The notes under the pieces: model-generated
What the model saw: the letters and a program-made list of their open reading frames with translations, nothing else
Told to the model about the DNA's origin: nothing
Databases searched by the model: none
Source: Patescibacteria group bacterium
GTDB lineage: Bacteria > Patescibacteriota > Minisyncoccia > Phycocordibacterales > UBA9973
Assembly (NCBI GenBank): GCA_028865035.1
Contig: JAGWLB010000001.1
Span: 99,668 to 163,667 of the forward strand
Direction: 5' to 3'
DNA: 64,000 bases
In this document: positions 8,213 through 34,792 of the stretch, piece after piece
How positions within the stretch are numbered: the first letter of the stretch is position 1
How the letters are laid out: each line of letters begins with the position of its first letter
Made by a program: the position numbers and the translations under genes

Positions 8213-9973
8213 ATGAACTCTGAAACCAGAAACTGTCAAAACTGCAAGCAAGACTTCACTATTGAGCCAGATGATTTCTCTTTCTATGAGAAAATCAAAG
8301 TTCCTCCACCTACATTTTGCCCAGAGTGTAGATTTGAAAGAAGAGCTGCTTTTCGTAATGAAAATAAACTTTTCCTTGTTAAAGATGCTTTTACCAAAAA
8401 AGATATTTTTTCATTGTATCCACCAGAGGCAAATCGCAAGGTTGTAACCCAAGAAGAATGGCATAGCGACACATGGAGTGCTTTTGATTATGGAAAAGAT
8501 ATTGATTGGTCTCGACCATTTATGACTCAGGTTTTAGAACTTGAAAAAGAAGTCCCAATTTACAATCTTAATGTGCAAAGAATGTTTAATAGTCCATATT
8601 CAGGCAATGCCACAGGCTTAAAAAATTGTTATTTACTCTTCGGATCAAATGACTCAGAGAATTGTTTATATGGTAATGAGGTAGATGCTTCTAGGGATTG
8701 TGTGGATAATTCTCATATTAATAAGTCTGAGCGTTGTTATGATTGTTTTTGGATTCAGAACTGTTATCAATGTTATGGAAGTATAATGTCTGTCGATTGT
8801 AGTAATGTGTGGTTTTCTCGCGATTGCCTTAGCTGTCACGATTGTATTGGCTGTACTAATTTACGTAAATCATCATATTGTATTTTTAATAAACAATATA
8901 CTAAGGAAGAATATACAAAATTAATAAGTGACATGAACCTCAATAGTATTCTTGACTATAAGAATATGTATGAGAAATCTATAAAATTTTGGAAAACTCA
9001 GATAAATAAATACCATCAAGGTTTGAGGAATTTAGATTCAACTGGGTCGTATGTAACGGATTCAAAAAATGTTAAATATGGATATGCAATACGTGGTAGT
9101 GAAAATTTAAAATATTGCCAGCTGATGTTAGTTCCAGACAATAAAGACTGTTATGACTGTTGTATATGGGGTCAACATACTGAATTATCATACGAGACTA
9201 GTATATGCGGTGAAAATTCATATAATCTTAAATTCTGTTTTAATAGTTGGCCTTCATGTCGTGATAGTGAGTACTGTATGAATAATTTTAGCTCTGGAAA
9301 TTGTTTTGGGTGTGTTGGTTTAAAAAGTGCACAATATTGTATTTTGAATAAGCAGTATTCTAAAGAAGAATATACTAGTTTAGTTTCAAAAATAAAAAAA
9401 CATATGGATGAAGTTCCATATATTGATTCACAAGGTTTAATCTATAAATATGGTGAATTTTTCCCAATAGAATTTTCTCCGTTTGGCTATAATAATTCTT
9501 TAGCAATTCAACAATTTTCTATGAATAAAGAAGAAGCTATAAAACATGGATATCCATGGATAGAAAAAGAAAAAAATGAATATGATATATCATTAAAGTA
9601 TTCAGATTTACCACAATCTATTTCTGAAGTAGATAATAGTATTTTGAAAGAAATTATTGAATGTGAAAAATGCCATAAGGCTTATCGTATTATGCCAGAT
9701 GAACTGACTTTTTTAAAAAAAGAAAATATACCTCTTCCGACTAAGTGTGTTGAGTGCCGTTATCAGGAGCGAATATTTCACAGGTTGTCTTTTAGGCTTT
9801 ACAATAGTAGCTGCATGTGTAATGGGGTAAATGATAAAACTAATCAGTACTCCAATACAAGAATGCATACTCATGGAAGTAATGCTTGTCAAGAAATATT
9901 TATGACTGGTTATAACCCTAAGGGTGACGATATAGTTTACTGTGAAAAATGTTATCAACAAGAAGTAGTATAA
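8213..9973 (+). CDS. Cysteine-rich (about 45 Cys) internally duplicated protein with N- and C-terminal CxxC...CxxC zinc-ribbon-like modules; unknown function
   Basis: N-term CQNCKQDF..FCPECRFERR and C-term CEKCHKAY..CVECRYQER are paralogous modules. Two ~170-aa internal repeats each end in CI(F/L)NKQY(T/S)KEEYT. Cys spacing of 9-12 residues is solenoid-like. Confidence 0.5.
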   Translation: MNSETRNCQNCKQDFTIEPDDFSFYEKIKVPPPTFCPECRFERRAAFRNENKLFLVKDAFTKKDIFSLYPPEANRKVVTQEEWHSDTWSAFDYGKDIDWSRPFMTQVLELEKEVPIYNLNVQRMFNSPYSGNATGLKNCYLLFGSNDSENCLYGNEVDASRDCVDNSHINKSERCYDCFWIQNCYQCYGSIMSVDCSNVWFSRDCLSCHDCIGCTNLRKSSYCIFNKQYTKEEYTKLISDMNLNSILDYKNMYEKSIKFWKTQINKYHQGLRNLDSTGSYVTDSKNVKYGYAIRGSENLKYCQLMLVPDNKDCYDCCIWGQHTELSYETSICGENSYNLKFCFNSWPSCRDSEYCMNNFSSGNCFGCVGLKSAQYCILNKQYSKEEYTSLVSKIKKHMDEVPYIDSQGLIYKYGEFFPIEFSPFGYNNSLAIQQFSMNKEEAIKHGYPWIEKEKNEYDISLKYSDLPQSISEVDNSILKEIIECEKCHKAYRIMPDELTFLKKENIPLPTKCVECRYQERIFHRLSFRLYNSSCMCNGVNDKTNQYSNTRMHTHGSNACQEIFMTGYNPKGDDIVYCEKCYQQEVV

Positions 9974-14685: not shown

Positions 14686-15084
14686 ATGAAAGGTTTTAAA
14701 CAATTTATTCTTCGAGGTAACATGGTCGATCTAGCCGTTGGTGTGGTCGTCGGGGCTGCTTTTGGGGCTGTGGTGAAATCATTGGTCGAGAATATTATTA
14801 CTCCATTTATAGGAGCAATTGTTAAGGCTCCAGATTTTTCAGCTCTTACTTTTACTATCAATGGCAGTAAATTTAACTATGGAAATTTCTTAAATGCACT
14901 TATATCATTTTTAATAATATCGACTGTGATATATTTCTTTGTGATCCTACCAATAAATACTCTTGTGGCTAGAGCTAAGAAAGAAAATAATATTGATCCA
15001 ACTACAAAGAAATGCAAAGAGTGTATGAGTGATATACCTATTGGTGCTCATAGGTGTCTTTATTGTACATCGGTTGTAGATTAA
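14686..15084 (+). CDS. mscL: Large-conductance mechanosensitive channel MscL with a C-terminal Cys4 zinc-ribbon tail
   Basis: FKQFILRGNMVDLAVGVVVGAAFG...NIITPFIG is the MscL signature; the tail CKECMSDIPIGAHRCLYC replaces the usual C-terminal helix. Confidence 0.85.
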   Translation: MKGFKQFILRGNMVDLAVGVVVGAAFGAVVKSLVENIITPFIGAIVKAPDFSALTFTINGSKFNYGNFLNALISFLIISTVIYFFVILPINTLVARAKKENNIDPTTKKCKECMSDIPIGAHRCLYCTSVVD

Positions 15085-15096
15085 TCTTTTATATTA

Positions 15097-15588
15097 ATGA
15101 AAAAAATTAAGAAAAAAAAAGGACAAGTCTCTAAAATTTCTAAAAATAAAAAACCTAAAATTGTAATGGTTAGCGGAGGTTTTGATCCTATACACATAGG
15201 ACACATACGATATTTTCAGGCCGCCAAGAAACTAGGTGATAAATTAATTGTCGTTCTAAACAATGACAACTGGTTTAAGGTTAAAGGGAAGCATGTATTT
15301 ATGCATGACAAAGAGCGCAAAGAAATAATAGAATCACTTTCCTGTGTTGATAAGGTTGTCATATCTTCTCATCCTAAAAATACAAAAGATATAAGTGTTT
15401 GCAAAGAAATATCGAAAATTAAACCAGACATTTTTGCAAATGGGGGAGACCGTTTCGCACACAATATTCCAGAATTTAAATTGTGTAATGATCTAGATAT
15501 TAAAATGGTTTTTAATGTAGGAAAAGGAGGGAAGATCAGAAGCTCATCAGAATTATTGAAAGCTTATTCTAAGCATATTAAAAAATAA
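15097..15588 (+). CDS. Cytidylyltransferase-fold nucleotidyltransferase, HldE domain II / RfaE-like (heptose-1-phosphate adenylyltransferase-like)
   Basis: SGGFDPIHIGHIRYFQAAKKLGDKLIVVLNND parallels HldE GCFDILHAGHVSYL..LGDRLIVAVNSD. Confidence 0.65.
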   Translation: MKKIKKKKGQVSKISKNKKPKIVMVSGGFDPIHIGHIRYFQAAKKLGDKLIVVLNNDNWFKVKGKHVFMHDKERKEIIESLSCVDKVVISSHPKNTKDISVCKEISKIKPDIFANGGDRFAHNIPEFKLCNDLDIKMVFNVGKGGKIRSSSELLKAYSKHIKK

Positions 15589-15598
15589 TTTATATATT

Positions 15599-16261
15599 AT
15601 GGATATCAAACACATTTATTTCCCAAAGCAAATACTAATACTACTTCTGTTAGCTGTAATCTTAAATATTGGCCGCGTTCTTATATTTCACTCAAATTAC
15701 TTTATCTATCTTATCTGGAATATATTCTTGGCAGTCATACCTTTTATCTTAAGCTCAGTACTTCTTTGGTATGCTAATAACAAAAAGTTAAATAAAACAT
15801 TATTGATTATCGGTGGTGTATTCTGGTTATTATTAATACCAAATGCTCCTTATATTATTACTGACATTATCCACCTAAATCATAACCATATACCATCCTT
15901 GCTTTATGATACATTTTTAGTATTTTCTTCGGCTTGGGTTGGTTTGCTTTTAGGAATGTATTCGATTTCACATATAGAGAAGATTATACATATTAAATAT
16001 AATAATAAGACGACATCATTGATTATTGCCTTTATTATGTTAACTACATCTTTTGGAATGTATTTAGGTAGATTTATGAGATTTAATAGTTGGGATATTT
16101 TCTCAAATACATCGTATTTCTTTACAAATATATTTCGTATTATCCTGAAACCATATAATTATGTCGATGCTTATTTATACACCTTATTATTCTTTGTATT
16201 TATATATGTATCTTATAAAGCATGGAAATACTCTCTAATAGAACAGAAAAGTAACACTTAA
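15599..16261 (+). CDS. Polytopic membrane protein, unknown function
   Basis: 6 predicted TM helices. Confidence 0.4.
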   Translation: MDIKHIYFPKQILILLLLAVILNIGRVLIFHSNYFIYLIWNIFLAVIPFILSSVLLWYANNKKLNKTLLIIGGVFWLLLIPNAPYIITDIIHLNHNHIPSLLYDTFLVFSSAWVGLLLGMYSISHIEKIIHIKYNNKTTSLIIAFIMLTTSFGMYLGRFMRFNSWDIFSNTSYFFTNIFRIILKPYNYVDAYLYTLLFFVFIYVSYKAWKYSLIEQKSNT

Positions 16262-16314
16262 TTCATATTGTTTGTGTTATAATATAATCATTATTAGTTC
16301 TAATATTTTTATAT

Positions 16315-16866
16315 ATGAATCATATTCAATACGAAGAGGCTCCAGTAGCAAAATTTATTTTTGGTAATACAAAAATGTCTTGGCTATGGTTAATCGCTAG
16401 GCTATACGTTGGTTGGGAATGGCTCCAAGCTGGTCTAAGTAAATTCAATGGTCAAGGTTGGATAGGGGACGGTGCTGGTAATGCACTTTCTGGTTTTATT
16501 AAAGGTGCTTTGTCTAAAACTGTCGGCGAACACCCAGATGTTTCTGGTTGGTATGGATCATTTCTTGAAAATGTAGTTCTTCCACACGCTTCTCTATGGT
16601 CTCATTTAGTGACTTACGGCGAAATTCTAGTAGGAGTTGCCCTTATCTTGGGTGTCTTCACGGGTATTGCTGCATTTTTTGGATTATTTATGAATTTAAA
16701 TTTTATGCTAGCTGGGTCACTTAGTGTAAATCCTATTTTATTTACACTTAGCATCGGACTAGTTCTTGCTTGGAAAATCGCCGGTGAAATAGGTATAGAT
16801 AGATACTTACTTCCAGCCCTTGGGACATATTGGCAACCTGGGAAAATATTCCAGCCAAAAGTATAA
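16315..16866 (+). CDS. DoxX-family membrane protein
   Basis: WLIARLYVGWEWLQAGLSKF... with a 4-TM DoxX-like layout. Confidence 0.5.
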   Translation: MNHIQYEEAPVAKFIFGNTKMSWLWLIARLYVGWEWLQAGLSKFNGQGWIGDGAGNALSGFIKGALSKTVGEHPDVSGWYGSFLENVVLPHASLWSHLVTYGEILVGVALILGVFTGIAAFFGLFMNLNFMLAGSLSVNPILFTLSIGLVLAWKIAGEIGIDRYLLPALGTYWQPGKIFQPKV

Positions 16867-16920
16867 TAGCATTTTCCTTGTTAACAATTCGAAAATAATA
16901 TTCTATGTTATAATCTACGC

Positions 16921-17274
16921 ATGGAATATAAAATAGACATCTATCAAGAAGAAAGACCTTGGGGTAATTTTCGAAGATTCACTAATAATACTCCATCCAC
17001 AGTGAAAATAATTACCATAAACCCCGGTGAATCCTTGAGTTTACAGAGCCACAAAGAAAGATCAGAATTCTGGAAAGTGACAGGCGGAGGTGGTGTGTGT
17101 GAAGTAAATGGTGAAAAGCATAATTTTAATATTGGAGATGAAAAGCTAATACCAGTAGGTGCCAAACATAGAATAATAGCAGGAGATAAAGGTATTGAAG
17201 TTCTTGAAATAGCTTTAGGGAATTTCAATGAAGAAGACATTGTTAGATATGAAGATAAATATGGGCGTGTATAA
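16921..17274 (+). CDS. Cupin-domain protein resembling the C-terminal domain of type II mannose-6-phosphate isomerase
   Basis: ERPWGNF...VKIITINPGESLSLQSHKERSEFWKV...IPVGAKHRI...DIVRYEDKYGR. Confidence 0.65.
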   Translation: MEYKIDIYQEERPWGNFRRFTNNTPSTVKIITINPGESLSLQSHKERSEFWKVTGGGGVCEVNGEKHNFNIGDEKLIPVGAKHRIIAGDKGIEVLEIALGNFNEEDIVRYEDKYGRV

Positions 17275-17279
17275 AAATT

Positions 17280-18473
17280 ATGGTTAAAGCAGTCAGAAAA
17301 CAAAAAATAAAAACCAAAACAAAAATTAAATCTAAACCCAAGATTAAGGCTAAGACTAAAGTTAAGGCTAAAGCCAAAACCAAAAAGAAAATAATTAAAA
17401 AAATTATTGTAAAAAGAAAAATAAAAAAAGTTGTCACAAAAAAAAGAAAAATTCTCAAAAAAGAAGAACAACTTACTAAACTAAAAAAACATTCGAATAA
17501 TCCCATTATTAAACCAAGTTATTATCAATGGGAATCTAAAGCTACTTTTAATCCTAGTGCTTTTGAAGCAAACGGTAAAGTTTACATTCTTTATCGTGCT
17601 GTTGGAGATAATGATTTATCTGTCCTAGGTTACGCGTCAAGCTATGATGGCCTCAACATAGAAGATAGGCCAACGTACGCTGTCTATCAAAGAAAAAATG
17701 AAATTGAAAATTTTGGATTATCAATAGATTATATCTCAGGAGGAGGAGGAAATGGTGGCTGTGAAGATCCAAGGTTAACGAGGATAGGTGATACTATATA
17801 TATGCTCTACACAGCTTTCGATGGCTGGAGTTCTGTACGTATAGCACTTACTTCAATAAAGTTAGACGATTTCAAAAAGAAAAAATGGAATTGGGAAAAA
17901 CCAATATTGCTTTCTCCACCAGGAGAAATACAAAAAAGCTGGGTACTCTTTCCAGAAAAGATTAATGGAAAATTTGCAATACTACATAGTATTTCACCTC
18001 AAATATTGATTGATTATATAGATGATTGGAATGATTTCAGAAATAATAAATTTATAGAAAGCATTTCTCATGAAGATAGAGAAAGGAATGTTTTAGAGAC
18101 TGGAATTAGAGGAGTAGGTCCAAGCCCTATAAAAACCAAACTAGGTTGGTTAGTACTGTATCACGCAATAGAGAAAAATGATCCAGGAAGATATAAATTA
18201 TTTGCTTTAGTTTTAGATTATAAAAATCCTAAAAATGTTATCTATCGTTCTGCTTATCCGATACTTGAACCAGAAAAAGCATACGAGAATGAAGGTCTTA
18301 AGTGGGGAGTGATTTATTCTTGTGGCGCGGTTGTTAAAGATGGAACTCTTTTTGTTTATTATGGTGGATCTGATCAATTTGTCTGTGTTGCTTCAATCGA
18401 GCTCGATAAATTATTAGATTCCCTTAAGAGAGAAAAAAAGGTTACACTTAAGAATAATAAAATATTAAAATAA
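17280..18473 (+). CDS. GH130 family glycoside phosphorylase (beta-mannoside phosphorylase-like) with a ~70-aa Lys-rich N-terminal extension
   Basis: NPIIKPSYYQWESKATFNPSAFEANGKVYILYRAVGDNDLSVLGYASSYDGLNIEDR and CEDPRLTRIGDTIYMLYTA are GH130 signatures. The first ~70 residues are KxK repeats. Confidence 0.75.
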   Translation: MVKAVRKQKIKTKTKIKSKPKIKAKTKVKAKAKTKKKIIKKIIVKRKIKKVVTKKRKILKKEEQLTKLKKHSNNPIIKPSYYQWESKATFNPSAFEANGKVYILYRAVGDNDLSVLGYASSYDGLNIEDRPTYAVYQRKNEIENFGLSIDYISGGGGNGGCEDPRLTRIGDTIYMLYTAFDGWSSVRIALTSIKLDDFKKKKWNWEKPILLSPPGEIQKSWVLFPEKINGKFAILHSISPQILIDYIDDWNDFRNNKFIESISHEDRERNVLETGIRGVGPSPIKTKLGWLVLYHAIEKNDPGRYKLFALVLDYKNPKNVIYRSAYPILEPEKAYENEGLKWGVIYSCGAVVKDGTLFVYYGGSDQFVCVASIELDKLLDSLKREKKVTLKNNKILK

Positions 18474-18483
18474 ATATAAACAT

Positions 18484-20424
18484 ATGTACGTAGTTAAAAG
18501 ATCTGTCCATAATCCAATACTTATACCTAATCGTGATCATTACTGGGAAGCGTTTGCGACTTTTAATATGTGTCCAATAAAAATTGGTAAAGTTACTTAC
18601 GGATTATATAGAGCAATTTCAGCTGTAGATCAAATGGCAATTCAGAAACAAATATCTACCATAGGTATAGGTAAGAGTCGTGATGGTATTCATTTTGAAG
18701 ATAGAGAGCCATTTATTGTTCCGGTTGAAGAATGGGAAGCTCATGGATGTGAAGACCCTCGTATTACATACTTCGAAGGAAAATATTACATATTTTATAC
18801 AGCCCTTTCGAGATATCCATTTGGACCAGAAGGAATAAAAGTTGCTGTTGCAGTCTCTAATGATTTAAAGAAAGTAAATGAACGTCATTTTGTGACACCT
18901 TTTAACGCAAAGGCTATGACATTGTTTCCAAAACGCATAAATGGCAAAATAACTGTCATTTTTTCAGCACATACAGATAGTCCTCCAGCTAAAATGTCTA
19001 TTGCTCAAGTAGACCATATGGAACAACTTTGGGATATAGATTTCTGGGAAGAATGGATAAAAAATATAGATGAACACACTATCAGTTTTCGTCGTACACA
19101 ATACGACCATCTAGAAGTTGGAGCACCACCAATACTTACTAAATATGGATGGTTACTTGTATATTCACATATACAAAATTATTTTCCATCACCAGAGAAA
19201 CTTGATCGTATTTTTGGTATTGAAGCGCTTCTGTTAGATAAAAATGATTTAACAAAAGTAATAGGTAGAACGAAAGGACCAATACTAGCACCGAACGAGC
19301 CATACGAGTTGTCTGGGTATGTGAATGATGTAGTATTCCCAACTGGAGCATTAGTGAATAAAGATATACTTACTATTTACTATGGAGCAGCTGATACTAC
19401 AACTTGTACTGCACACGTAAACTTAAATGATTTGATATTCAGTATGTGTCCAGATAAATTTCCAGATTTTCAATTTAAACGCTCAGCAAAAAATCCTATA
19501 ATCTCTCCCAAAAGTGAAAATGATTGGGAATCAAAAGCGACTTTCAATCCAGCCGCAATATATCTCGGAGGCAAAACACACATCTTATACAGAACTCTTT
19601 CTGGTGATAACACTTCATATATAGGTTATGCTTCAAGTAAAGATGGAATTAATTTAATTGAAAGATTAAATTCTCCTATATATGTACCACGCGAGGATTT
19701 TGAAAAGAAAAAAATTTCTGGAGGTAACTCAGGTTGTGAAGATCCAAGAATAACTCAAATAGGGAAAAATCTTTATATCTGTTACACCGCTTACGACAGT
19801 ATCGGCCCACCACACGTTGCTATCTCTTCTATAACAGTTAAAGATTTTTTAGCTCACAAATGGAACTGGACTAAACCAGCACTTGTGACGCCTCCTGCTT
19901 TTGATGATAAAGATACTTGTTTGTTTCCAGAGAAATTAAAAAATGGATACTTTATTCTACATCGTGTGGGGAATGATATTTGTGGTGATTATCTTAAATC
20001 ACTTGATTTTGAGAAGAATATGGTTCACAAATGCATTCGAGTTCTTGCTCCACGCTTAAATTCTTGGGACAGTGCTAAAGTTGGTATCACAGCTCCACCG
20101 ATAAAAACAAAATATGGTTGGTTGTTGCTTTATCATGGAGTATCAAAGAGTCACGGTACCTATCGTGTCGGAGCGGTACTTCTTGATCTGAAAGATCCAG
20201 GTATTATCCTTTCGCAAAGCACGGATCCTATTTTTGAACCGATTGAATCTTACGAGAAGGTTGGTATTGTTAATAATGTTGTATTTCCTTGCGGAATGGT
20301 CCGCAAAGGGGACTTGCTATATATATATTACGGCGGAGGAGATAAGGTTGTAGGTGTTGCTACGATGAAATTTTCAACAATTCTCTCTGCCCTTGTTCAC
20401 GGGAAACGTTTTAATGATAAATAA
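18484..20424 (+). CDS. Tandem-duplicated GH130 glycoside phosphorylase (two complete GH130 domains in one 646-aa protein)
   Basis: Domain 1: HNPILIPNRDHYWEAFATFN...GCEDPRITYFEGKYYIFYTA. Domain 2: KNPIISPKSENDWESKATFNPAAIYLGGKTHILYR...GCEDPRITQIGKNLYICYTA. Confidence 0.75.
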   Translation: MYVVKRSVHNPILIPNRDHYWEAFATFNMCPIKIGKVTYGLYRAISAVDQMAIQKQISTIGIGKSRDGIHFEDREPFIVPVEEWEAHGCEDPRITYFEGKYYIFYTALSRYPFGPEGIKVAVAVSNDLKKVNERHFVTPFNAKAMTLFPKRINGKITVIFSAHTDSPPAKMSIAQVDHMEQLWDIDFWEEWIKNIDEHTISFRRTQYDHLEVGAPPILTKYGWLLVYSHIQNYFPSPEKLDRIFGIEALLLDKNDLTKVIGRTKGPILAPNEPYELSGYVNDVVFPTGALVNKDILTIYYGAADTTTCTAHVNLNDLIFSMCPDKFPDFQFKRSAKNPIISPKSENDWESKATFNPAAIYLGGKTHILYRTLSGDNTSYIGYASSKDGINLIERLNSPIYVPREDFEKKKISGGNSGCEDPRITQIGKNLYICYTAYDSIGPPHVAISSITVKDFLAHKWNWTKPALVTPPAFDDKDTCLFPEKLKNGYFILHRVGNDICGDYLKSLDFEKNMVHKCIRVLAPRLNSWDSAKVGITAPPIKTKYGWLLLYHGVSKSHGTYRVGAVLLDLKDPGIILSQSTDPIFEPIESYEKVGIVNNVVFPCGMVRKGDLLYIYYGGGDKVVGVATMKFSTILSALVHGKRFNDK

Positions 20425-20450
20425 AATATAATACTATGTATTATTAAGTT

Positions 20451-21575
20451 TTAAATAATTTTCAAAACTACTATTTCAGAATGTGTTCCTATTCTCATAG
20501 GGATAAATGTCATACCTGTACCACTAGTTGTGATAGCAACATTTTCTTTTGTATATGTAACTCCGTATGATTGTGATTTGTAAATACTTTTAAGAATAAG
20601 ATTAAATGGGAAAAATTGTCCATCGTGTGTATGCCCAGATGCTATAAGAGATATACCCAGATCAGCTAAAGATATATTATTCTTAGGGTAGTGCAGAAGT
20701 AAAATGGAAGGTATGTTAGTATCATATCCTAAATCTTTAATTCTATTTTTTATTTCTTCTGCGGATTCATTTTGATTAAAAGAAGCACCGATTATTTGAG
20801 TGTCGTTTATTATTTTTATTGAGTTGGTCATATCTACAATATTTTTCGGAAATGCTTTACGGAATGAATCATAGTCTTGGCTATATCGTTCATGATTACC
20901 TTCAACATAAAAGAATCCAAGAGGTGGATTTAATGTTTCAAAATATTTGAAACTTTTTTCGTAATTAAAAATTGGTCCGTCAATAATATCACCGACATGG
21001 AGCACTATGTCAGGATTTTCTTTTTTAATTAATTGAATCATCTTTTTTGAAAATCTAGATCTTTGCATATGCCCTAGATGAGTATCTGATATTAAAACTA
21101 TTTTTTTATCAACCCAATTTTTCTTGAGTGAATTTGACTTAATCTCTTTGTTTATTATTTTTATATTAAAAGCATTCCAAACACCATATACAACTAAAAT
21201 GCTGGCAATAGCAAAAATAGCTACACTTACAGTATTAGTAGATACTTGTATATGTAGGTAATAGTTCATCCATATATAAAGTGTCATCAATAAACTACCT
21301 ATAAATAGATAAATCAAAAGAGAAAACCAAATGGCACTCAATATATACAAGAATGATCCTAATTTTGAAAAGTGCTTAAAGCCAATTAAAGTAGTAATTA
21401 TGAGAAGTAGCGGAAATATAAATAGACAAATAGTAAATATATGAGAAAGTACTACATTTGAATTATATAATGCTTCTCTGAATGAAGAATAAATACTATA
21501 TTCCCAAATAACAACGACCCCTAATATAACTAGTATTATTAATAATATCTTAAAGTTTTTTCTGATAATTTGCAT
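20451..21575 (-). CDS. Membrane-anchored calcineurin-like metallophosphoesterase
   Basis: N-terminal TM helices then ISDTHLGH, GDIIDG, GNHE, GHTHDGQ. Confidence 0.75.
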   Translation of the reverse strand: MQIIRKNFKILLIILVILGVVVIWEYSIYSSFREALYNSNVVLSHIFTICLFIFPLLLIITTLIGFKHFSKLGSFLYILSAIWFSLLIYLFIGSLLMTLYIWMNYYLHIQVSTNTVSVAIFAIASILVVYGVWNAFNIKIINKEIKSNSLKKNWVDKKIVLISDTHLGHMQRSRFSKKMIQLIKKENPDIVLHVGDIIDGPIFNYEKSFKYFETLNPPLGFFYVEGNHERYSQDYDSFRKAFPKNIVDMTNSIKIINDTQIIGASFNQNESAEEIKNRIKDLGYDTNIPSILLLHYPKNNISLADLGISLIASGHTHDGQFFPFNLILKSIYKSQSYGVTYTKENVAITTSGTGMTFIPMRIGTHSEIVVLKII

Positions 21576-21800
21576 ATTTTTATGTACATAAAGGTACTTA
21601 ATTGTTGCAGAACCTGCCTATAGTATACTCTAAAACAACAATAAAAATTATAATTTTTTGTCTATCTCGAAATTATTAAAATCATGTCCTGTTTTACTGC
21701 CTGAAAGCTATTTATAGAACGATTTTTCGCTCGTTGTGTATTTTTAGGGTTGACGTAATTAGCGAGGTAGTACATACTTGTGCTTTTTGTCACTATACAC

Positions 21801-21830
21801 TTGTTATCAAACTTGATATGAGAGTATAAT
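21801..21830 (+). promoter_or_regulatory. Putative sigma-70 promoter for nrdJ (-35 TTGTTA, 18-nt spacer, -10 TATAAT), overlapped by two ACTTGT-containing direct repeats
   Basis: TATAAT at 21825-21830; repeats TACATACTTGTGC and TATACACTTGTTA 21 bp apart. Confidence 0.35.
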
Positions 21831-21878
21831 ATATTCCCAAGGTCATCGGTAACAAATTATCAGTTAAAATTTAATAAT

Positions 21879-24212
21879 ATGCCTTCAAAAAAAAGAGTTG
21901 TAAGTACAAAAAAAGTCGACACTAAAAAAGTTTCCTCGCAAACTACAAAAATTTCTAACAAGAATTATTTTATTAAAAGCATTCAAAAAAGAGATGGTAC
22001 AAATGTTCCTTTTGACATCGAAAAGATAGTTAATGCTATTAATAAAGCAATGCTTGCAGCGAATGAAGGGTCTATCAAAGAAGCAGAAGCTGTCGCTAAG
22101 AAAGTTTTGGCTGAAATTGAATTTTTCGCCAAGAAAAATAAGGATTTTATCCCTACAGTTGAGATTATTCAAGATACTGTAGAGAAGCATTTAATGCTCT
22201 CCGACTATGTTAAGACATCGAAGAACTACATTCTTTTCCGAGAAGAAAGAGCTCGCTTACGTTCTCATGGTGTTTCTGTTCCTGAGCACGTAAAAAAGTT
22301 AACCGATGAAAGTAAAAAATATTTTAGAAACCCACTTTCTGAATTTGTTTATTATCGAACTTACGCCAAATGGATTGAAGAAGAGGGTAGAAGAGAAACT
22401 TGGATAGAGACAGTTGATCGTTATATAAATTTTATGAAAGGGAAGCTTGGAAATACTTTGAAAGATTCTGAATACAAAGAAGTGCGTGAAGCTATCTTAA
22501 AACAAGAAGCAATGCCTTCAATGCGTCTAATGCAATTTGCAGGTGCAGCTGCAGAGAAAACAAATGTCTGCGCTTATAACTGTTCTTTTGTTGCTCCATC
22601 ATCGTTTCAAGATTTTGGCGACATAGTTTATATCTCAATGTGTGGCACAGGAGTTGGTTTCTCTGTTGAAAGTAAGAATATACAATCTCTTCCTCAAATA
22701 AAAATTCAAAATGGTAAAAAAATACCTACTTATGTAGTGCCTGATACCAAAGAAGGCTGGGCAGACGCTTTGGTTTTTGGTATGAAGACTTGGTTTGATG
22801 GCAACGATGTGGATTTTGATTTCTCTCTACTTCGTCCTGCAGGAGCAAGACTTAAAATAATGGGTGGTAAAAGTTCAGGTCCTCAACCACTGATAGATTT
22901 GTTAGGTTTTACTAGAGAGCGTATTTTACGTCGTCAAGGAAGGCACTTAAGGAATATCGATGCTCATGACATTATATGTAAAATAGGTGAATGTGTCGTT
23001 TCGGGTGGTGTTCGCCGAAGCGCCCTTATTTCACTGTCTGATTTAGATGACCAAGATATGCGTGATGCTAAAAACGGCCAATTCTGGCTTAACGAAGGTC
23101 AAAGAATGCTTGCTAATAATTCAGCTGTTTATAATACCAAGCCAACTGAAACTGAATTTTTGAAAGAATGGATTTCTCTTATGGAATCAGGAACTGGAGA
23201 AAGAGGAATCTTTAATCGTGGGTCACTATATAACTCATTGCCAAAGCGACGCTTAGAGGTATCAAAGAATTATATTGGTGAAATGGGTACTAATCCTTGT
23301 GGAGAAATAATTTTACGATCAAGGCAATTCTGTAACCTTTCTGAAGTAGTTGCTCGTACAGATGATACCGAGGAGTCTCTTATGAGAAAAATCCGAGTTG
23401 CAACTATCCTTGGTACTTACCAGTCTACTCTTACAAAATTAGGTTATCTTTCTAAAGCTTGGAAAGATAATTGCGAAGAAGAACGCTTGCTAGGCGTATC
23501 TATTACTGGTCAATGGGATTCAAAAGTTGCTCGCGATCCAGATGTTCTAAAGAGATTAAAGAATGAAACAATTCGTCTTAACAAGATTTACGCCAAGAAG
23601 TTCGGCATAAACGAATCAACTTGTATTACTTGTATTAAACCATCAGGTACTGTTTCTCAAACTGTCGATTGTGCTTCGGGTATGCATCCTCGTCACGCTC
23701 CTTACTATATACGCCGAGTTCGTATCTCAGCCAATGATGCTCTATTTAAAATGCTAAAAGATCAAGGAGTACCATTCCACCCAGAAGTAGGACAGACTCT
23801 TGAGAATGCTACTACCTTTGTTCTCGAGTTTCCTATGAAGTCACCAGAAGGAGCAATTTGTAAAGACGATATATCTGCTATTGAGCAATTAGAACACTGG
23901 AAAATAGTGAAAGTAAATTACACTGAACATAATCCATCAGTAACTGTCTCGGTAGGTGAGAATGAATGGATACAAGTAGCACATTGGTTATATCAAAATT
24001 GGGATATTGTCGGAGGCCTTTCTTTCTTGCCTAGGAATAATCATATCTACCAACTAGCTCCATATGAAACAATCGATGAGAAAAAATACAATGAATTAAT
24101 GAAAAAAATGCCAGATTTTGATTTCTCAAAAATTATTAAATACGAAATCAAAGACGAGACTGAAGTTAAAAGAGAGCTTGCCTGTGTTGCCGGAGTTTGT
24201 GATATAGTTTAA
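21879..24212 (+). CDS. nrdJ: Class II (adenosylcobalamin-dependent) ribonucleotide reductase with an N-terminal ATP-cone
   Basis: ATP-cone (IQKRDGTNVPFDIEKIVNAINKA); NPCGEIILRSRQFCNLSEV active-site region; C-terminal CVAGVCDIV redox cysteines. Confidence 0.8.
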   Translation: MPSKKRVVSTKKVDTKKVSSQTTKISNKNYFIKSIQKRDGTNVPFDIEKIVNAINKAMLAANEGSIKEAEAVAKKVLAEIEFFAKKNKDFIPTVEIIQDTVEKHLMLSDYVKTSKNYILFREERARLRSHGVSVPEHVKKLTDESKKYFRNPLSEFVYYRTYAKWIEEEGRRETWIETVDRYINFMKGKLGNTLKDSEYKEVREAILKQEAMPSMRLMQFAGAAAEKTNVCAYNCSFVAPSSFQDFGDIVYISMCGTGVGFSVESKNIQSLPQIKIQNGKKIPTYVVPDTKEGWADALVFGMKTWFDGNDVDFDFSLLRPAGARLKIMGGKSSGPQPLIDLLGFTRERILRRQGRHLRNIDAHDIICKIGECVVSGGVRRSALISLSDLDDQDMRDAKNGQFWLNEGQRMLANNSAVYNTKPTETEFLKEWISLMESGTGERGIFNRGSLYNSLPKRRLEVSKNYIGEMGTNPCGEIILRSRQFCNLSEVVARTDDTEESLMRKIRVATILGTYQSTLTKLGYLSKAWKDNCEEERLLGVSITGQWDSKVARDPDVLKRLKNETIRLNKIYAKKFGINESTCITCIKPSGTVSQTVDCASGMHPRHAPYYIRRVRISANDALFKMLKDQGVPFHPEVGQTLENATTFVLEFPMKSPEGAICKDDISAIEQLEHWKIVKVNYTEHNPSVTVSVGENEWIQVAHWLYQNWDIVGGLSFLPRNNHIYQLAPYETIDEKKYNELMKKMPDFDFSKIIKYEIKDETEVKRELACVAGVCDIV

Positions 24213-29395: not shown

Positions 29396-31153
29396 ATGCA
29401 TCTCGATGAGAAAAGTATCATAGATCTATTAAATAGTTCAGGGCTAGTCAGTAAAACTGATGTAGCTATGGCTCAAAAGAAAGCTAAAGAAAAAGGTCAA
29501 TCTATTGGCCTAGTTTTAGTTAGTGAAGGTAAGCTTACAGAAAAAGATTGGAACAGTATGCAAGCCGTTTCACTAGGTATTCCATTTGTTAGCTTGAAGG
29601 GTGAGAAGATTGATCCTAGTGTCCTATCTCTGATACCAGAACCGATTGCTCGTAACAGTAATATAATTGCTTATAAAAAAAGCAAAGCAGGCCTAGAAGT
29701 TGCGATGCTCGACGTAGATAATTTATCGGTTATAGATTTTATAAAGAAAAAAGTTGGGCTTAAGATTTTACCGCGCCTAACAAGCTCAGATTCAATAAAG
29801 GAAGCCTTAACACAATACAAGAAAAGTTTGCAAGCTGACTTTGAAGATATCATCAAAAAAGAAAGCGCTTCGATAAAAACTATTTTAAAAAATGATAACT
29901 CTAGTGAAGAAAAGTCAGAAAAAGAACTTAAAGAATTAGCAGAAGATTTACCAATAGTAAAGATAGTAGATACTCTTATCTCTCATGCCATTTCTCAAGG
30001 AGCATCTGATGTACATATAGAGCCTGAAGAGGATTCACTAATTGTTCGTTATCGCATTGATGGTATTTTGCACGATGCGATGGTTTTACCCAAAGACACT
30101 GCACCAGGAATAGTGGCTCGTATAAAAGTTTTGTCAAATCTAAAATTAGACGAAAAACGTCTCCCTCAAGACGGACGTTTCAAAATTGAAGGAGAAGACG
30201 GTAATGTATCATTTCGTGTTTCGACTCTGCCTACGTATTATGGAGAAAAAACAGTGATACGTATTTTAAGAGAAAACTCTAAAGGTTTTTCCCTAGAGAC
30301 TCTAGGCTTTCACGGTAATGCACTAGAACTTATACATGAAGGTATGAAGCAAAGAAGTGGTATGTTGCTTTGTGCGGGTCCTACGGGTTCGGGTAAAACT
30401 ACAACTTTGTATACAATGCTCGATATTTTAAATACTCCAGAAGTAAATATTTCCACTGTTGAAGACCCTATAGAATATCAAATGGCACGTATAAACCAAA
30501 CACAAACAAAAGCAGAAATAGGTTTAACTTTTGCAAATGGTTTGCGTACACTGCTTCGTCAAGATCCGGATATTATAATGGTAGGGGAGATTCGTGACGG
30601 GGAGACAGCTTCACTTGCAGTCAACGCTAGTCTTACTGGCCACTTAGTACTATCAACCATCCACACGAATTCCGCTGCTGGAGCTATTCCCCGTATGATA
30701 GATATGGGAGTCGAACCATTTTTAATTGTTTCTACAGTTAAAACCATTATTGCTCAGCGCTTAGTTAGAATTCTTGATGATAATAAGGAAAAATATTTCT
30801 TAGACGATGCTGAAAAAAAAGCTCTAGAAAAAGTTGCAAATCTCGATCTTGTTCTTGAAAGATTGAAAAGTGAAAAGATTGTTGATCCAAATGCTACTTG
30901 GAAAACTATACCATTATACAAACCTGTAACAAGTAAAGAATCAGAGAGTGGTTATAAAGGACGGTTAGGTATTCACGAAGTTTTAAAAGTTACACCGACT
31001 CTTAAAGATATGATTCTAAAAGGATCATCAACGGATGAGATTGAAGCCAGAGCAAAAGAAGAGGGTATGATGACAATGCTCGAAGATGGTATTTTCTTTG
31101 CCTGCAAGGGTTTGACTTCGACAGAAGAGGTTCTTCGTGTTGTTTCTGAATAA
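29396..31153 (+). CDS. pilB: Type IV pilus assembly ATPase PilB (GspE family)
   Basis: N-terminal GSPII_E_N-like domain; Walker A LLCAGPTGSGKTTTLY; GspE His box. Confidence 0.85.
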   Translation: MHLDEKSIIDLLNSSGLVSKTDVAMAQKKAKEKGQSIGLVLVSEGKLTEKDWNSMQAVSLGIPFVSLKGEKIDPSVLSLIPEPIARNSNIIAYKKSKAGLEVAMLDVDNLSVIDFIKKKVGLKILPRLTSSDSIKEALTQYKKSLQADFEDIIKKESASIKTILKNDNSSEEKSEKELKELAEDLPIVKIVDTLISHAISQGASDVHIEPEEDSLIVRYRIDGILHDAMVLPKDTAPGIVARIKVLSNLKLDEKRLPQDGRFKIEGEDGNVSFRVSTLPTYYGEKTVIRILRENSKGFSLETLGFHGNALELIHEGMKQRSGMLLCAGPTGSGKTTTLYTMLDILNTPEVNISTVEDPIEYQMARINQTQTKAEIGLTFANGLRTLLRQDPDIIMVGEIRDGETASLAVNASLTGHLVLSTIHTNSAAGAIPRMIDMGVEPFLIVSTVKTIIAQRLVRILDDNKEKYFLDDAEKKALEKVANLDLVLERLKSEKIVDPNATWKTIPLYKPVTSKESESGYKGRLGIHEVLKVTPTLKDMILKGSSTDEIEARAKEEGMMTMLEDGIFFACKGLTSTEEVLRVVSE

Positions 31154-31177
31154 ATTTAGCAAAACATATGATTTTAA

Positions 31178-32392
31178 ATGAAATTTAAATACAAAGTACA
31201 AAAAAATGGTGGCGGGGTTCTTGAAGGTTATAAAGAAGCCCCAGATAAGTTTTCACTAGCTCGTGATCTAAGAGAGCAAGGTGATACTCCTATATATATT
31301 GAGGAATCTGGAACTAAAGAAAAAACCTCCATTTTAAAAATGAATTTTTTTGGAAGGGTTTCACTCTCAGAGAAAATAATATTTACAAACAATTTGAGTG
31401 GAATGCTAACTGCAGGTTTGCCGCTCACAAGAGCATTGTTAGTTCTTCAAAAACAAAACAAAAATCAGACTTTTAATAAAATTCTGAATAGCCTTATAGA
31501 TGATATTAATAGTGGAAATACTCTATCAGATGGTATGAGTAAGTATCCGAAGGTATTCTCTAGTCTTTTTGTTTCTATGGTTCATGCAGGTGAAGAATCA
31601 GGAAGTTTACCAAAATCTTTATCAGAAGTCGGTCTTAATTTAAAGAAGGCATATGATTTGAGTAAAAAGGTTAAAAGTGCATTAATCTACCCAGTAATAA
31701 TTCTCTGCGCAATTATTTTGATTGGTGTTTTAATGATGATCTTCGTTGTCCCTACTCTTACTAAAACATTCAAAGATATGGGAGCTGATTTACCAGCTTC
31801 AACTAAATTCATTATTTGGTTGTCAGATACTGTTAGTAACCATACAATATTATTTTTATTATTCTTACTATCGATTGCTGCCGCTATCATTCTATTTGTA
31901 AAGTTACGGGCAACACAAAAATATCTTGATTATTTGATCTTACGAGTACCTGTTGTAAATAATATATCTAAGGAAGTGAATACCGCCCGCACCGCTCGCA
32001 CGTTATCCTCACTGCTATCATCAGGAGTAGATATGTCTAGAGCTTTGACCATCACAAAAGAAGTTGTGCAAAATATTTATTACAAAAAATTAATTTCACA
32101 AGCCATTACTTCCATAGAAAAAGGTAGCCCTCTGTCTGCTTCCTTTAAAGACAATACACAACTTTATCCTGTTATGATGGGAGAAATGATCGAAGTAGGC
32201 GAAGAAACAGGTAATCTATCTAAAATGTTATTAGATATCGCTAACTTCTATGAATCCGAAGTTGATAATAAAACAAAAGACTTATCGGTTATTATCGAGC
32301 CAGTCTTAATGCTTTTAATAGGCGGAGCCGTCGGATTTTTTGCTGTATCTATGATTTCCCCGATATACTCTGTGATGAGTAATATTAAATAG
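31178..32392 (+). CDS. pilC: Type IV pilus platform protein PilC (GspF family)
   Basis: Two T2SS-F repeats, 3 TM helices, ~400 aa, directly after pilB. Confidence 0.8.
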   Translation: MKFKYKVQKNGGGVLEGYKEAPDKFSLARDLREQGDTPIYIEESGTKEKTSILKMNFFGRVSLSEKIIFTNNLSGMLTAGLPLTRALLVLQKQNKNQTFNKILNSLIDDINSGNTLSDGMSKYPKVFSSLFVSMVHAGEESGSLPKSLSEVGLNLKKAYDLSKKVKSALIYPVIILCAIILIGVLMMIFVVPTLTKTFKDMGADLPASTKFIIWLSDTVSNHTILFLLFLLSIAAAIILFVKLRATQKYLDYLILRVPVVNNISKEVNTARTARTLSSLLSSGVDMSRALTITKEVVQNIYYKKLISQAITSIEKGSPLSASFKDNTQLYPVMMGEMIEVGEETGNLSKMLLDIANFYESEVDNKTKDLSVIIEPVLMLLIGGAVGFFAVSMISPIYSVMSNIK

Positions 32393-32743
32393 TTATATAT
32401 TTTTCCTTTTTTTATAATAAATTGTAAAAATTATTGTAATTAAGAGAAAACCAATTACAAACCATTTTATATAGAAAGATGTTTTATTTTGGGTTTGATT
32501 TGTTGTTTTGTCTACAACGGTTAAAGGTACTTCTTCGCTTTGAGGTTGGCTGACATCTATCGGTAGGTTCGTATTCACACTTGAATTTATATTTCCAGAT
32601 AAATTTGGATGTGCATTCTCTGGTATCGGCTGTGACGACTTACTGTTTGGGAAAATTGCTTTTTTGAGCGCATAGGCAGGAGAAGCATAAATAGAAATTA
32701 TGGCTATTAGTATTACTATTGGAATGTATATTTTATTTTTCAT
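32393..32743 (-). CDS. Small bitopic protein at the distal end of the pilin operon
   Basis: Signal/TM helix at the N-terminus and TM helix at the C-terminus; 116 aa. Confidence 0.35.
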   Translation of the reverse strand: MKNKIYIPIVILIAIISIYASPAYALKKAIFPNSKSSQPIPENAHPNLSGNINSSVNTNLPIDVSQPQSEEVPLTVVDKTTNQTQNKTSFYIKWFVIGFLLITIIFTIYYKKRKNI

Positions 32744-32745
32744 AT

Positions 32746-34146: not shown

Positions 34147-34781
34147 TAATTTCCTAAATTTGTTTTTAAATTTCTCATAGCAGCACCAGCATTTATAGTA
34201 GTAGTATTAGTCGAGTTTAATGTATCTTGTTTTAATACTATAAGATTAATTTTAACGAATTTTATTTGATTTATGTTAACAGGTTGAGCAAGTGGATTAG
34301 TACTTCCATCATAGTTGCCATCATAGTAATAAAATAATGGATTAGTACCCAAAGATAAACTTGAGAAAATCGGTGTAATTATTTCATTGTTTGTATTATA
34401 TGACAGAGGACTACCTGTTGGGTCTGTAATACCTTTATATAGTATACCATTCGACATATAGTATCGAACTCTTGATACTGTACCATTACCATCAGGTGCT
34501 GTTGAGAAGAATACGATCTGAGTATCATCTGCTTGATTAATAGGATATGCACCGTTTACTCCGTATTCACAGTTACGGATTTCATTTACAAAGTTAGCAG
34601 CAATTCTTCTGGCTTGGTCTGTGTTACTGATACCTTTAGATTGCTGTCTACTATTCGTAAGAATATCTTTAAGCATTAGCGTAGTGCCTAACATAAGAAT
34701 TCCAAAAATAAAGATTGTTACTATTGTCTCAATAAGAGTAAAGCCAGATTTATTATTTTTTATTTTTATAAAATAATTCAT
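34146..34781 (-). CDS. Type IV pilin / pseudopilin with a prepilin-type N-terminal cleavage-methylation domain
   Basis: KSG|FTLIETIVTIFIFGILML class III signal (G-F cleavage site, E at +5). Confidence 0.75.
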   Translation of the reverse strand: MNYFIKIKNNKSGFTLIETIVTIFIFGILMLGTTLMLKDILTNSRQQSKGISNTDQARRIAANFVNEIRNCEYGVNGAYPINQADDTQIVFFSTAPDGNGTVSRVRYYMSNGILYKGITDPTGSPLSYNTNNEIITPIFSSLSLGTNPLFYYYDGNYDGSTNPLAQPVNINQIKFVKINLIVLKQDTLNSTNTTTINAGAAMRNLKTNLGN

Positions 34782-34792
34782 TATATTTTGAT

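Follow-up and report, generated by a model that had tools for sequence, protein, structure and literature searches.

A putative beta-1,2-mannoside gene cluster of Patescibacteria with a polylysine-tailed GH130 enzyme and a fusion of two unlike GH130 domains

Introduction

What does a bacterial gene cluster do that encodes three GH130 domains, one of them behind a long tail of lysines and two of them fused in a single protein? The question is raised by a 64-kb stretch of DNA from a Patescibacteria metagenome-assembled genome (contig JAGWLB010000001.1; the whole stretch analyzed is called the window here), which has a low GC content of about 34%. The initial annotation described an operon of a phosphomannose isomerase (PMI)-type cupin, a GH130 protein with a lysine-rich N-terminus and a tandem GH130 protein, and these assignments are borne out by Pfam matches; the operon arrangement holds as well. 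The two GH130 proteins, of 397 and 646 amino acids, are 100% identical to the NCBI entries KGI58_00670 and KGI58_00675 (Patescibacteria group bacterium). In our overall reading, whose chances we consider evenly balanced, the cluster would act on beta-1,2-mannosides, with the C-terminal domain of the tandem protein (D2) as a phosphorylase, its N-terminal domain (D1) working independently of phosphate, the tailed enzyme biased toward transfer and the tail serving as a membrane tether. The features concerned are the following:

17280-18473, plus strand: tailed GH130, 397 residues, whole open reading frame (ORF); PF04041 over residues 68-383
17280..17477, plus strand: polycationic N-terminal tail, residues 1-66, predicted disordered; recognized by charge, open frame and homologs
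17478..18473, plus strand: catalytic domain of the tailed enzyme (K-type GH130), residues 67-397; PF04041, E 7e-44
18484-20424, plus strand: tandem GH130 protein, 646 residues, whole ORF; two PF04041 stretches, E 8e-94
18484..19458, plus strand: D1, N-terminal GH130 domain of the tandem protein; PDB 9fj8, E 1.3e-36
19459..20424, plus strand: D2, C-terminal GH130 domain of the tandem protein; PDB 9fj8, E 6.9e-60

GH130 fold and predicted specificity

The GH130 fold is confirmed by AlphaFold2 (AF2) models, which give template modeling (TM) scores of 0.78-0.89 against GH130 structures, and by PF04041 matches above the gathering score. For the tailed enzyme, the top PDB sequence matches are 9fj8 and 7fip (Foldseek TM 0.78-0.80), and D1 and D2 each match solved GH130 structures independently (9fj8). 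The top NCBIfam model is NF052550 for all three domains (D1, 177 bits; D2, 244 bits; tailed enzyme, 203 bits), and its equivalog cut-off of 450 bits is reached by none of them. Pairwise identity among the three domains is 32-42%, and 33-42% to Teth514_1788/1789.

To compare active sites, 119 orthologs per domain were aligned with four characterized enzymes, with fragments rebuilt from HMMER alignments; residue roles are taken from the literature (PMC4264767, PMC4599007, PMC12814180, PMC10913872) and positions follow Teth514_1788 numbering unless stated otherwise. Asn28, Arg43, Glu91, the catalytic Asp92, Arg94, Lys142 and Asp281 are common to all three families. Asn28, Asp92 and Asp281 are invariant in 119 of 119 orthologs per domain, with a single exception (Asn for Asp92 in one D1 ortholog), and neither Glu91 nor Lys142 varies in any of the three families. 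In their own numbering, the tailed enzyme keeps Asn91, Arg106, Glu162-Asp163, Lys219 and Asp365, and D1 keeps Glu90-Asp91, Asn28, Arg43, Lys143 and Asp304. A PF04041 assignment and a catalytic Asp in each domain, proposed as a check on the initial annotation, are thus present in all three.

Glu91 beside the catalytic Asp and Lys142, which contacts O2 of the +1 mannose (Lys199 in BT3780), are determinants of beta-1,2 specificity (PMC4599007, PMC12814180). All three domains belong to the beta-1,2 branch nearest to Teth514_1788/1789, and all retain the catalytic acid and the sugar-binding residues. The specificity for beta-1,4-mannobiose or N-glycan cores that had been suggested for the locus is not the best fit, because the nearest relatives and the Glu/Lys142 pair indicate beta-1,2-mannosides.

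The phosphate site differs among the three domains

The residues that bind phosphate in characterized GH130 phosphorylases separate the three domains:

His159-Arg160: His-Arg in D2; His-Ser in the tailed enzyme (Ser in 108, Gly in 8 and Asn in 2 of 119); Phe-Ser in D1
Arg/Lys194: Lys in D2; hydrophobic with an invariant Arg at 195 in the tailed enzyme; Glu in D1
His213: His in D2; His in the tailed enzyme; Ser in D1
Tyr221-Arg222: Tyr-Arg in D2; Tyr-Lys/Arg in the tailed enzyme; Phe-Gly in D1
Position 224: Gly in D2; mostly Gly in the tailed enzyme, Phe in the window protein; Glu in D1

Arg160 corresponds to Arg202 of Uhgb_MS, where the R202A exchange cuts phosphorylase activity 16-fold (PMC12814180), and to the Arg/His position of GT108 enzymes, at which phosphorylase activity is lost altogether when Arg is exchanged for His (PMC10913872). 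D2 has the complete site (HR, K, H, Y) in 119 of 119 orthologs, and its signature HR.KV.H.YRG equals that of Teth514_1789 at the same positions. Its beta-1,2 phosphorylase residues are, in the numbering of the tandem protein, Glu419-Asp420, Lys476, His493-Arg494, Lys532, His551, Tyr560-Arg561 and Asp620. Judged by these alignments, D2 alone among the three domains keeps the full canonical phosphate site and is a bona fide phosphorylase candidate, and D1 and the tailed enzyme are predicted to be unable to bind phosphate as characterized GH130 phosphorylases do.

In place of the phosphate site, D1 has Phe160-Ser161, Glu211, Ser228, Phe244-Gly245 and Glu247 (own numbering). Each replacement occurs in 119 of 119 orthologs, and 8 of 8 distant representatives retain Glu194 and Phe221. 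D1 and D2 are only 33% identical, with unlike active sites, and since D1 lacks every phosphate-site residue, the tandem protein appears to join two unlike modules rather than to be a duplicated phosphorylase. Hence, the initial description as two complete GH130 domains holds for the fold and the catalytic Asp and fails for the phosphate site of D1, which is wholly lost. The tandem protein occurs with 71-83% identity in at least 120 protein clusters, and its two domains are equally conserved (mean identity 74.4% for each). Because D1 is conserved as strongly as D2 and keeps the catalytic Asp, it is best described as a constrained, distinct active-site type; the decaying pseudo-domain that had been considered for one half of the tandem does not fit. 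The tandem model forms one rigid body (predicted local distance difference test (pLDDT) 94, predicted TM score 0.91), and no PDB structure was found that spans both halves (TM normalized to the query at most 0.42).

D1 might instead be catalytically silent and act as a carbohydrate-binding or scaffolding partner that stabilizes or regulates D2. The loss of all four phosphate-site positions and a score below every characterized family are consistent with this, as are the oligomeric nature of GH130 enzymes, whose interfaces shape the active site (PMC12814180), and the many distant relatives in which a degenerate GH130-like N-domain precedes an active one. A scaffold, however, needs less active-site constraint than D1 shows: its Glu-Asp pair, the -1 Asn/Asp, the +1 Arg and Lys and the new Glu are invariant in 119 orthologs and mostly kept in distant representatives, and overall conservation equals that of D2. 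We therefore consider a silent D1 unlikely and keep to an active, phosphate-independent domain.

The tailed enzyme has His236-Ser237 (own numbering) in place of His-Arg and an Arg displaced by one position (Arg277). As the key phosphate-binding Arg is replaced by Ser, the earlier label of a cytoplasmic-type phosphorylase is unsafe for this enzyme. Among 136 representatives of the K-type clade, 80 combine a non-Arg residue at 160 with Arg195, and 54 combine Arg160 with Lys194; all tailed representatives carry the non-Arg160/Arg195 signature.

The same enzyme has a Gly-rich insertion (residues 141-160, 17700-17760; consensus Y-x-S-G-G-G-W-x-G-G) directly before the catalytic C-E-D-P-R motif. The insertion is nearly invariant in 90 homologs, is modeled with a pLDDT of 37-42 and is absent from D1, D2 and the Teth enzymes. 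It might contact the donor phosphate(s) in place of the lost Arg.

The lysine tail

Of the first 73 residues of the 397-residue protein, 32 are Lys, 3 are Arg and just 2 are Asp/Glu; the net charge over residues 1-66 is +30. The initial annotation left room for a non-canonical true start, with homologs that lack the K-rich region. The tail would then lie outside the protein, as an A-rich leader upstream of a downstream non-canonical start that gene callers misread as a lysine tract. Several in-frame ATT/ATA codons within the tail region could serve such a start, yet no in-frame ATG, GTG or TTG follows codon 1 before the catalytic domain, and the annotated ATG lies 5 nucleotides past the cupin stop codon. 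A Shine-Dalgarno sequence is not recognizable at 17280, which is uninformative because the genes of the region all lack one. The tail region of the window has 0 in-frame stops compared with 4 and 9 in the other frames. Across six genomes (the window and five related ones) the tail frame likewise has 0 stops, with 3-13 in each other frame, and an internal canonical start is missing in five of the six. Homologs neither start downstream nor lose the tail. A downstream start is thus contradicted by the missing canonical start, the frame that is open in all six genomes and the conserved tail, and we regard it as very improbable.

Conservation was followed at two levels. Among the 120 best homologs of the tailed enzyme (56-75% identity; with labels such as Nomurabacteria and Paceibacterota), 119 are extended at the N-terminus by 29-128 residues, which include 11-52 Lys and hardly any acidic ones, and the net charge of the tail is at least +10 in all 119. 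A species-level scan with one genome per species (185,579 species) gave 221 relatives, of which the best 80 loci were counted. Here, 77 of 80 K-type genes are tailed (median 62 residues, median net charge +22, at least +8 in all 77); of the three untailed genes, two end at a contig edge and one has a different N-domain. The tails cannot be aligned with each other, and it is the composition that stays conserved: pooled tails contain 42% K, 26% I+V+L, 19% T+S+A+P and 2.5% D+E, with a net charge of +0.43 per residue. Hydrophobic residues are spread evenly among the lysines and recur about every 4 residues (the spectrum peaks at 80-90 degrees; z is about 10 relative to shuffled versions of these tails). 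In the AF2 model, built from a 90-sequence alignment, tail residues 1-66 have a pLDDT of 37-52 and no secondary structure, and the propeller exceeds 90. Taken together, these comparisons indicate that the tail is a translated, selected and disordered polycation that is confined to this protein and whose composition is maintained in over 100 lineages. It is as real and unusual as first proposed: among 149 ORFs from the window and five related loci, a 30-residue stretch with a net charge of at least +13 occurs only in the six tailed-GH130 orthologs.

The same count rules out a genome-wide lysine bias as the source of the tail. Nor is the tail a recent microsatellite expansion, as its DNA shows weak, short-period arrays at most. 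An acidic partner that neutralizes the tail is unsupported, as the net charge of the tandem protein averages -3, close to neutrality. The tail alone gave no match in Pfam or in a set of 5.8 billion proteins.

Distant relatives bear on the role of the tail. A HMMER search with the K-type catalytic domain against 1.84 billion cluster representatives returned 401 proteins with E <= 1e-30, and the best 150 were examined. Basic tails occur in about ten of these, and the majority have a weakly GH130-like N-domain of ~270 residues. Five representatives and P0104 carry a transmembrane helix and a basic linker where the tail sits. Four of the five have a non-Arg residue at 160 with Arg195, the fifth lacks both Arg160 and Arg195, and the gene after the membrane-anchored K-type gene encodes a PMM-like HAD protein. 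By the positive-inside rule, a basic linker after an N-terminal hydrophobic helix places the following domain in the cytoplasm, at the membrane. The catalytic domain of the anchored homologs is therefore expected to be cytoplasmic and membrane-proximal.

Because homologs swap in a transmembrane anchor, hydrophobic residues are interspersed in the tail and the operon encodes DUF1361 and DoxX proteins, we tentatively read the tail as a tether. With its interspersed Ile, Val and Leu it would hold the enzyme electrostatically on an anionic surface, most probably the inner face of the membrane. We put a tether to the cytoplasmic membrane face at somewhat short of an even chance; the remaining probability falls to another role or to no specific partner. 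One such role would be binding of a polyanion, either soluble or in the nucleoid, such as DNA, rRNA/ribosomes or polyphosphate. The enzyme would then be enriched at the nucleoid or within a condensate, much as with the histone-H1-like lysine tails of other bacterial proteins. High Lys content, few acidic residues, variable length (19 to 118 residues) and lack of sequence conservation are typical of non-specific polyanion binders, the tail is predicted to be disordered and a ribosome hibernation factor gene often lies 3' of the operon. Yet 26% of the tail is Ile, Val and Leu at regular spacing. Histone-H1-like tails consist of Ala, Pro and Lys, unlike this tail. Moreover, homologs replace the tail with a transmembrane anchor and not with a nucleic-acid-binding domain, no other protein among the 149 ORFs has such a tail and we know of no link between mannoside metabolism and nucleic acids. 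Polyanion binding thus seems unlikely to us, and the membrane tether is retained below.

Two further sets of distant relatives concern the domain architecture. In P0245-P0381, about 104 of 136 K-type representatives have the ~270-residue N-domain, which scores 13-37 bits with GH130 profiles; a simple search for sequence patterns revealed no catalytic motif of the CEDPR type there. Together with the K-type domain, it apparently forms a second, degenerate kind of tandem GH130. The other set consists of fusions: P0241 is a triple fusion of K, D1 and D2 without a tail, and the K-type domain is fused to a nucleotidyltransferase in P0310, to a PMM-like HAD protein in P0344 and to an SDR epimerase/GDP-mannose-dehydratase-like domain in P0281. 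These partners suggest a connection of the K-type domain with nucleotide-sugar and mannose 1-phosphate metabolism.

In P0269 (627 residues), a MshEN-type domain is fused to a GH130 pair of the D1/D2 type. MshEN-type domains are a fold that binds cyclic di-GMP in other proteins, which hints that some relatives of the GH130 pair are under second-messenger control.

Organization and conservation of the gene cluster

All genes between 14686 and 20424 lie on the plus strand, with intergenic gaps of 5-54 nucleotides. Upstream of the tailed enzyme, the window contains:

15097..15588, plus strand: small nucleotidyltransferase, 163 residues, HxGH motif, short basic N-terminus; opens the conserved cluster; PF01467, E 3e-14
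15599..16261, plus strand: DUF1361 integral membrane protein, 220 residues; PF07099, E 5e-37
16315..16866, plus strand: DoxX-family membrane protein, 183 residues; PF07681, E 1e-10
16921..17274, plus strand: stand-alone PMI-type cupin, 117 residues; PF01050, E 4.9e-18
16944-17471 and 17243-17506, minus strand: two Phe-rich antisense ORFs, not genes; opposite the cupin gene and the coding sequence of the tail

The Phe-rich ORFs had been taken for the mirror image of the tail, correctly so, because TTT complements AAA and they are the antisense of an AAA-rich coding strand. The operon had been drawn from the cupin to the tandem gene; these three genes stand as members, and the unit begins further upstream, at the nucleotidyltransferase (15097).

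The cupin scores 65.9 bits with PF01050 (gathering cut-off 23.6), so that the type II phosphomannose isomerase cupin profile is satisfied, and it also matches the C-terminal PMI part of GMP/PMI. For the nucleotidyltransferase, the top NCBIfam model is rfaE_dom_II (TIGR02199, D-glycero-beta-D-manno-heptose 1-phosphate adenylyltransferase; E 9.5e-23, 80.6 bits). As the cut-off is 181.5 bits, the protein stays below the equivalog level of HldC/RfaE domain II, and the superfamily PF01467 with its HxGH motif is all that is established; the top PDB match is 3glv. Its short basic N-terminus (15097-15180) has a counterpart on the class II ribonucleotide reductase (21879-21970), with 12 Lys+Arg in residues 1-40 of each, and ranges from 0 to about 25 residues among nucleotidyltransferase orthologs.

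The dominant gene order in the best 80 of the 221 loci is CTP>[DUF1361]>HAD>CUPIN>K>D1+D2, plus truncations, where CTP is the nucleotidyltransferase of 150-173 residues, HAD a HAD-IIB protein with a match of the eukaryotic PMM type and K the tailed GH130. Upstream neighbors were counted at the 61 species loci, and downstream neighbors at the 66 loci, that had room for them. The tandem gene follows the tailed gene in 53 of 66 loci. The nucleotidyltransferase lies upstream in 38 of 61, directly adjoining in some, and the cupin is directly 5' of the tailed gene in 27 of 61. DUF1361 is found in 11 of 61 and in the same place in the related locus L004. The place of DoxX is held by the HAD gene in 22 of 61 loci; the window has no HAD gene there, and about one DoxX match occurs in the 80 related loci. 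The DoxX gene of the window is thus probably a lineage-specific insertion where most relatives carry the HAD-IIB/PMM-like gene. On the 3' side of the tandem gene, approximate counts are 5 for ABC, 1 for DedA-like and 10 for hibernation factor genes, and no consistent membrane-related gene was found there across the related loci. No cluster GH130 domain carries a signal peptide. The locus is a conserved, operon-like, same-strand cluster of Patescibacteria (Paceibacteria/Nomurabacteria-type), predicted to serve cytoplasmic beta-1,2-mannoside metabolism.

In scans of the cluster region, consensus promoter and terminator sites were no more common than in shuffles. None of 8 gene starts checked (14686-21879) has a Shine-Dalgarno-like sequence, and the upstream regions are merely A/T-rich, which suggests Shine-Dalgarno-independent initiation in the source organism.

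Elsewhere in the window, the plus strand encodes a 586-residue protein (8213-9973) with an N-terminal double CxxC zinc-ribbon (CQNCKQDFTIEPDDFSFYEKIKVPPPTFCPECR) and without Pfam or NCBIfam match; a pair of zinc-ribbon paralogs (586 and 588 residues) lies directly 5' of the nucleotidyltransferase in two related genomes (L003, 2767-6363; L006, 969-4541). A type IV pilus-like set occupies 29396-36613, with an ATPase-sized and a platform-sized ORF on the plus strand; the minus strand carries several ORFs that encode the GFTLIE prepilin motif. At 45617-48946 (plus strand), and especially at 48500-48946, a 1109-residue protein has a Thr/Pro/Ser-rich C-terminal tract that gives a GC skew of -0.47 at 48-49 kb. 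The tract is preceded by a segment like the self-cleaving chaperone domain of tail-spikes and endosialidases, and a 1076-residue ORF comes next.

A possible function of the cluster

The proposed pathway would run as follows. D2 would convert beta-1,2-mannoside and inorganic phosphate to alpha-mannose 1-phosphate (Man1P), and the HAD/PMM-like enzyme together with the cupin PMI would lead Man1P to mannose 6-phosphate and fructose 6-phosphate. D1 would act without phosphate, most likely in hydrolysis or trimming, analogous to GH130 mannosidases. Hydrolysis is the simplest reading because those mannosidases arose via the same basic-to-acidic replacement (PMC4599007). The two domains would form a fixed pseudo-heterodimer. 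The tailed K-type enzyme would be a poor phosphorylase that more likely transfers mannose, either from a nucleotide sugar supplied through the adjacent nucleotidyltransferase or, with altered geometry, from Man1P. Such a transfer bias is suggested because beta-1,2 GH130 enzymes can use GDP-mannose (PMC12814180) and GT108 enzymes show that the Arg position matters (PMC10913872). With the normal phosphate-binding site kept in one of three GH130 domains, the cluster is probably more than a simple sugar-degrading operon.

Several points weigh against this assignment of roles. As for D1, a hydrolase activity would have to be an independent invention, since D1 scores far below the BT3780 mannosidase model (GH130_3; NF058598, 89 bits, cut-off 550), and the D1 alignment near position 194 allows two gap placements with either Glu or His opposite the Arg, neither of which is a basic Arg/Lys. 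As for the tailed enzyme, Arg195 covaries with the loss of Arg160 and may rebuild a phosphate site, in which case the enzyme could still be a phosphorylase. The nearest family of the nucleotidyltransferase uses beta-heptose 1-phosphate, whereas GH130 enzymes release alpha-Man1P. The AF2 model shows no helix in the tail, and the periodicity of 80-90 degrees is not the 100 degrees of an amphipathic helix. Furthermore, the N-terminal modules found at the tail position need not share one role, the ~270-residue N-domain being the commonest. The fusion proteins are singletons at 90% clustering and some could be merged adjacent genes, which is why they count as supporting evidence only.

The operon could also be purely catabolic: imported or host beta-mannosides would be degraded to Man1P or mannose and passed via PMM and PMI to glycolysis, and the nucleotidyltransferase would merely salvage Man1P by converting it to a nucleotide sugar, in the way suggested for Thermoanaerobacter. 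PMM-like and PMI genes lie within the cluster, the nearest characterized enzymes are phosphorylases of a GDP-mannose salvage cluster in Thermoanaerobacter (PMC4264767), GH130 enzymes show weak glycosyltransferase activity whose physiological relevance is doubtful (PMC12814180) and the covarying Arg195 may restore phosphate binding. On the other hand, the related loci show no conserved gene for a transporter, a secreted glycosidase or a solute-binding protein within the cluster. In addition, three differentiated sites, of which one alone has the canonical phosphate site, exceed the needs of simple degradation, and a conserved tether or anchor serves no obvious purpose for a soluble catabolic enzyme. 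We consider a purely catabolic operon somewhat unlikely, and a combination of transfer, phosphate-independent action and phosphorolysis remains our preferred reading.

A more far-reaching form of this reading is a Paceibacteria counterpart, built from GH130 domains, of the mannogen cycle of Leishmania. The tethered, tailed enzyme, devoid of the phosphate-binding Arg, would be a synthase that builds beta-1,2-mannose chains on an acceptor, either soluble or lipid-linked, and draws on a nucleotide sugar provided by the nucleotidyltransferase of the operon; the D1-D2 protein would trim the product and recycle it to Man1P. We regard this version as speculative and distinctly doubtful; if true, it would provide a carbohydrate reserve or a surface mannan for reduced, host-dependent cells. 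In more general terms, the cluster is fixed in hundreds of small-genome Patescibacteria species and is thus probably important to them, and it could signal an unrecognized beta-1,2-mannoside reserve or envelope component. A membrane-tethering tail would, if true, be a previously unrecognized targeting device for an enzyme with a glycoside-hydrolase fold. Irrespective of its role, the long polylysine tail, conserved on one metabolic enzyme, offers an unusual and experimentally tractable case of a compositionally conserved disordered region in bacteria. GH130 is also a model for switching between hydrolase, phosphorylase and transferase on one fold. The operon sets three naturally differentiated sites side by side, two of them fused, and swaps at the positions implicated by mutagenesis make rules for function prediction testable.

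Comparison with known systems

Every component of the cluster comes from a known family, and nothing is categorically new. The searchable literature yielded no description of a polylysine tail on a GH130 protein, nor did the literature searched describe a D1-D2 fusion of unlike sites or a six-gene mannose cluster of Patescibacteria. For this radiation, the sole mention of GH130 that we found is made in passing, where two genes are counted in a Microgenomates genome (PMC7143001).

The closest relatives are Teth514_1788 and Teth514_1789 of Thermoanaerobacter sp. X-514 (GH130_6; PDB 9FJ8, 7FIP), the top match of all three domains with TM scores up to 0.89. They are a beta-1,2-oligomannan and a beta-1,2-mannobiose phosphorylase, respectively, encoded as paralogs side by side near mannose-nucleotide genes (PMC4264767). 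The window shares with them the catalytic Asp, the Glu/Lys determinants of beta-1,2 specificity and the adjoining paralogs next to mannose-nucleotide genes. However, the Teth enzymes are single-domain, untailed and both phosphorylases, whereas here one enzyme is tailed and lacks Arg160, and a D1 domain without phosphate site is fused to D2.

The GH130_3 mannosidases BT3780 and BACOVA_03624 have carboxylates in place of the basic phosphate-binding residues and are hydrolases, with the acid and the -1 subsite kept (PMC4599007). D1 resembles this pattern in its invariant Glu at 194 and its mostly Glu at 224, a likeness of pattern and not a residue alignment to Glu227/Glu268 of BT3780. D1 is nonetheless nearer to the phosphorylases (177 compared with 89 bits) and has Ser, not Glu, at the Arg160 position. 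Uhgb_MS and dual GH130 enzymes (GH130_4/_6/_13) can use GDP-mannose as donor, with Arg202/Arg242 tuning the balance, though transferase activity is weak and the authors doubt its role (PMC12814180). By analogy, this precedent would fit nucleotide-sugar use by the altered K-type site, but enzymes of the Uhgb_MS type keep the Arg and are untailed.

The GT108 enzymes MTP1-7 of Leishmania have the same five-bladed propeller and catalytic logic, and are detected as weak fold matches (6Q50, 6Q4X). In GT108, the residue at the His-Arg position splits GDP-mannose-dependent transferases from phosphorylases, and the set makes and recycles a cytosolic beta-1,2-mannan (PMC10913872). The window enzymes are not GT108 members (13-14% identity), and the switch residue of the tailed enzyme is Ser, in contrast to His in transferase-only GT108; a transferase activity of the window enzyme is suggested by analogy. 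To our knowledge, no mannan is known in Patescibacteria.

GH130-GH130 proteins have been noted before: CAZy in 2018 listed four among 1592, uncharacterized and with both modules in the same sequence cluster (PMC7660257). The halves of the window tandem, by comparison, are 33% identical with unlike sites, in a fusion kept throughout more than 120 protein clusters. The tail finds its nearest likeness in the polybasic or amphipathic membrane tethers of peripheral glycosyltransferases such as Mycoplasma MG517 (PMC6506492) and in histone-H1-like bacterial lysine tails, where a cationic, partly hydrophobic end places a catalytic domain on an anionic surface. Tethers of the MG517 type are about 15-30 residues long and usually helical, whereas the tail described here spans 30-130 residues, contains about 42% Lys, is predicted to be disordered and sits on an enzyme of the glycoside-hydrolase fold.

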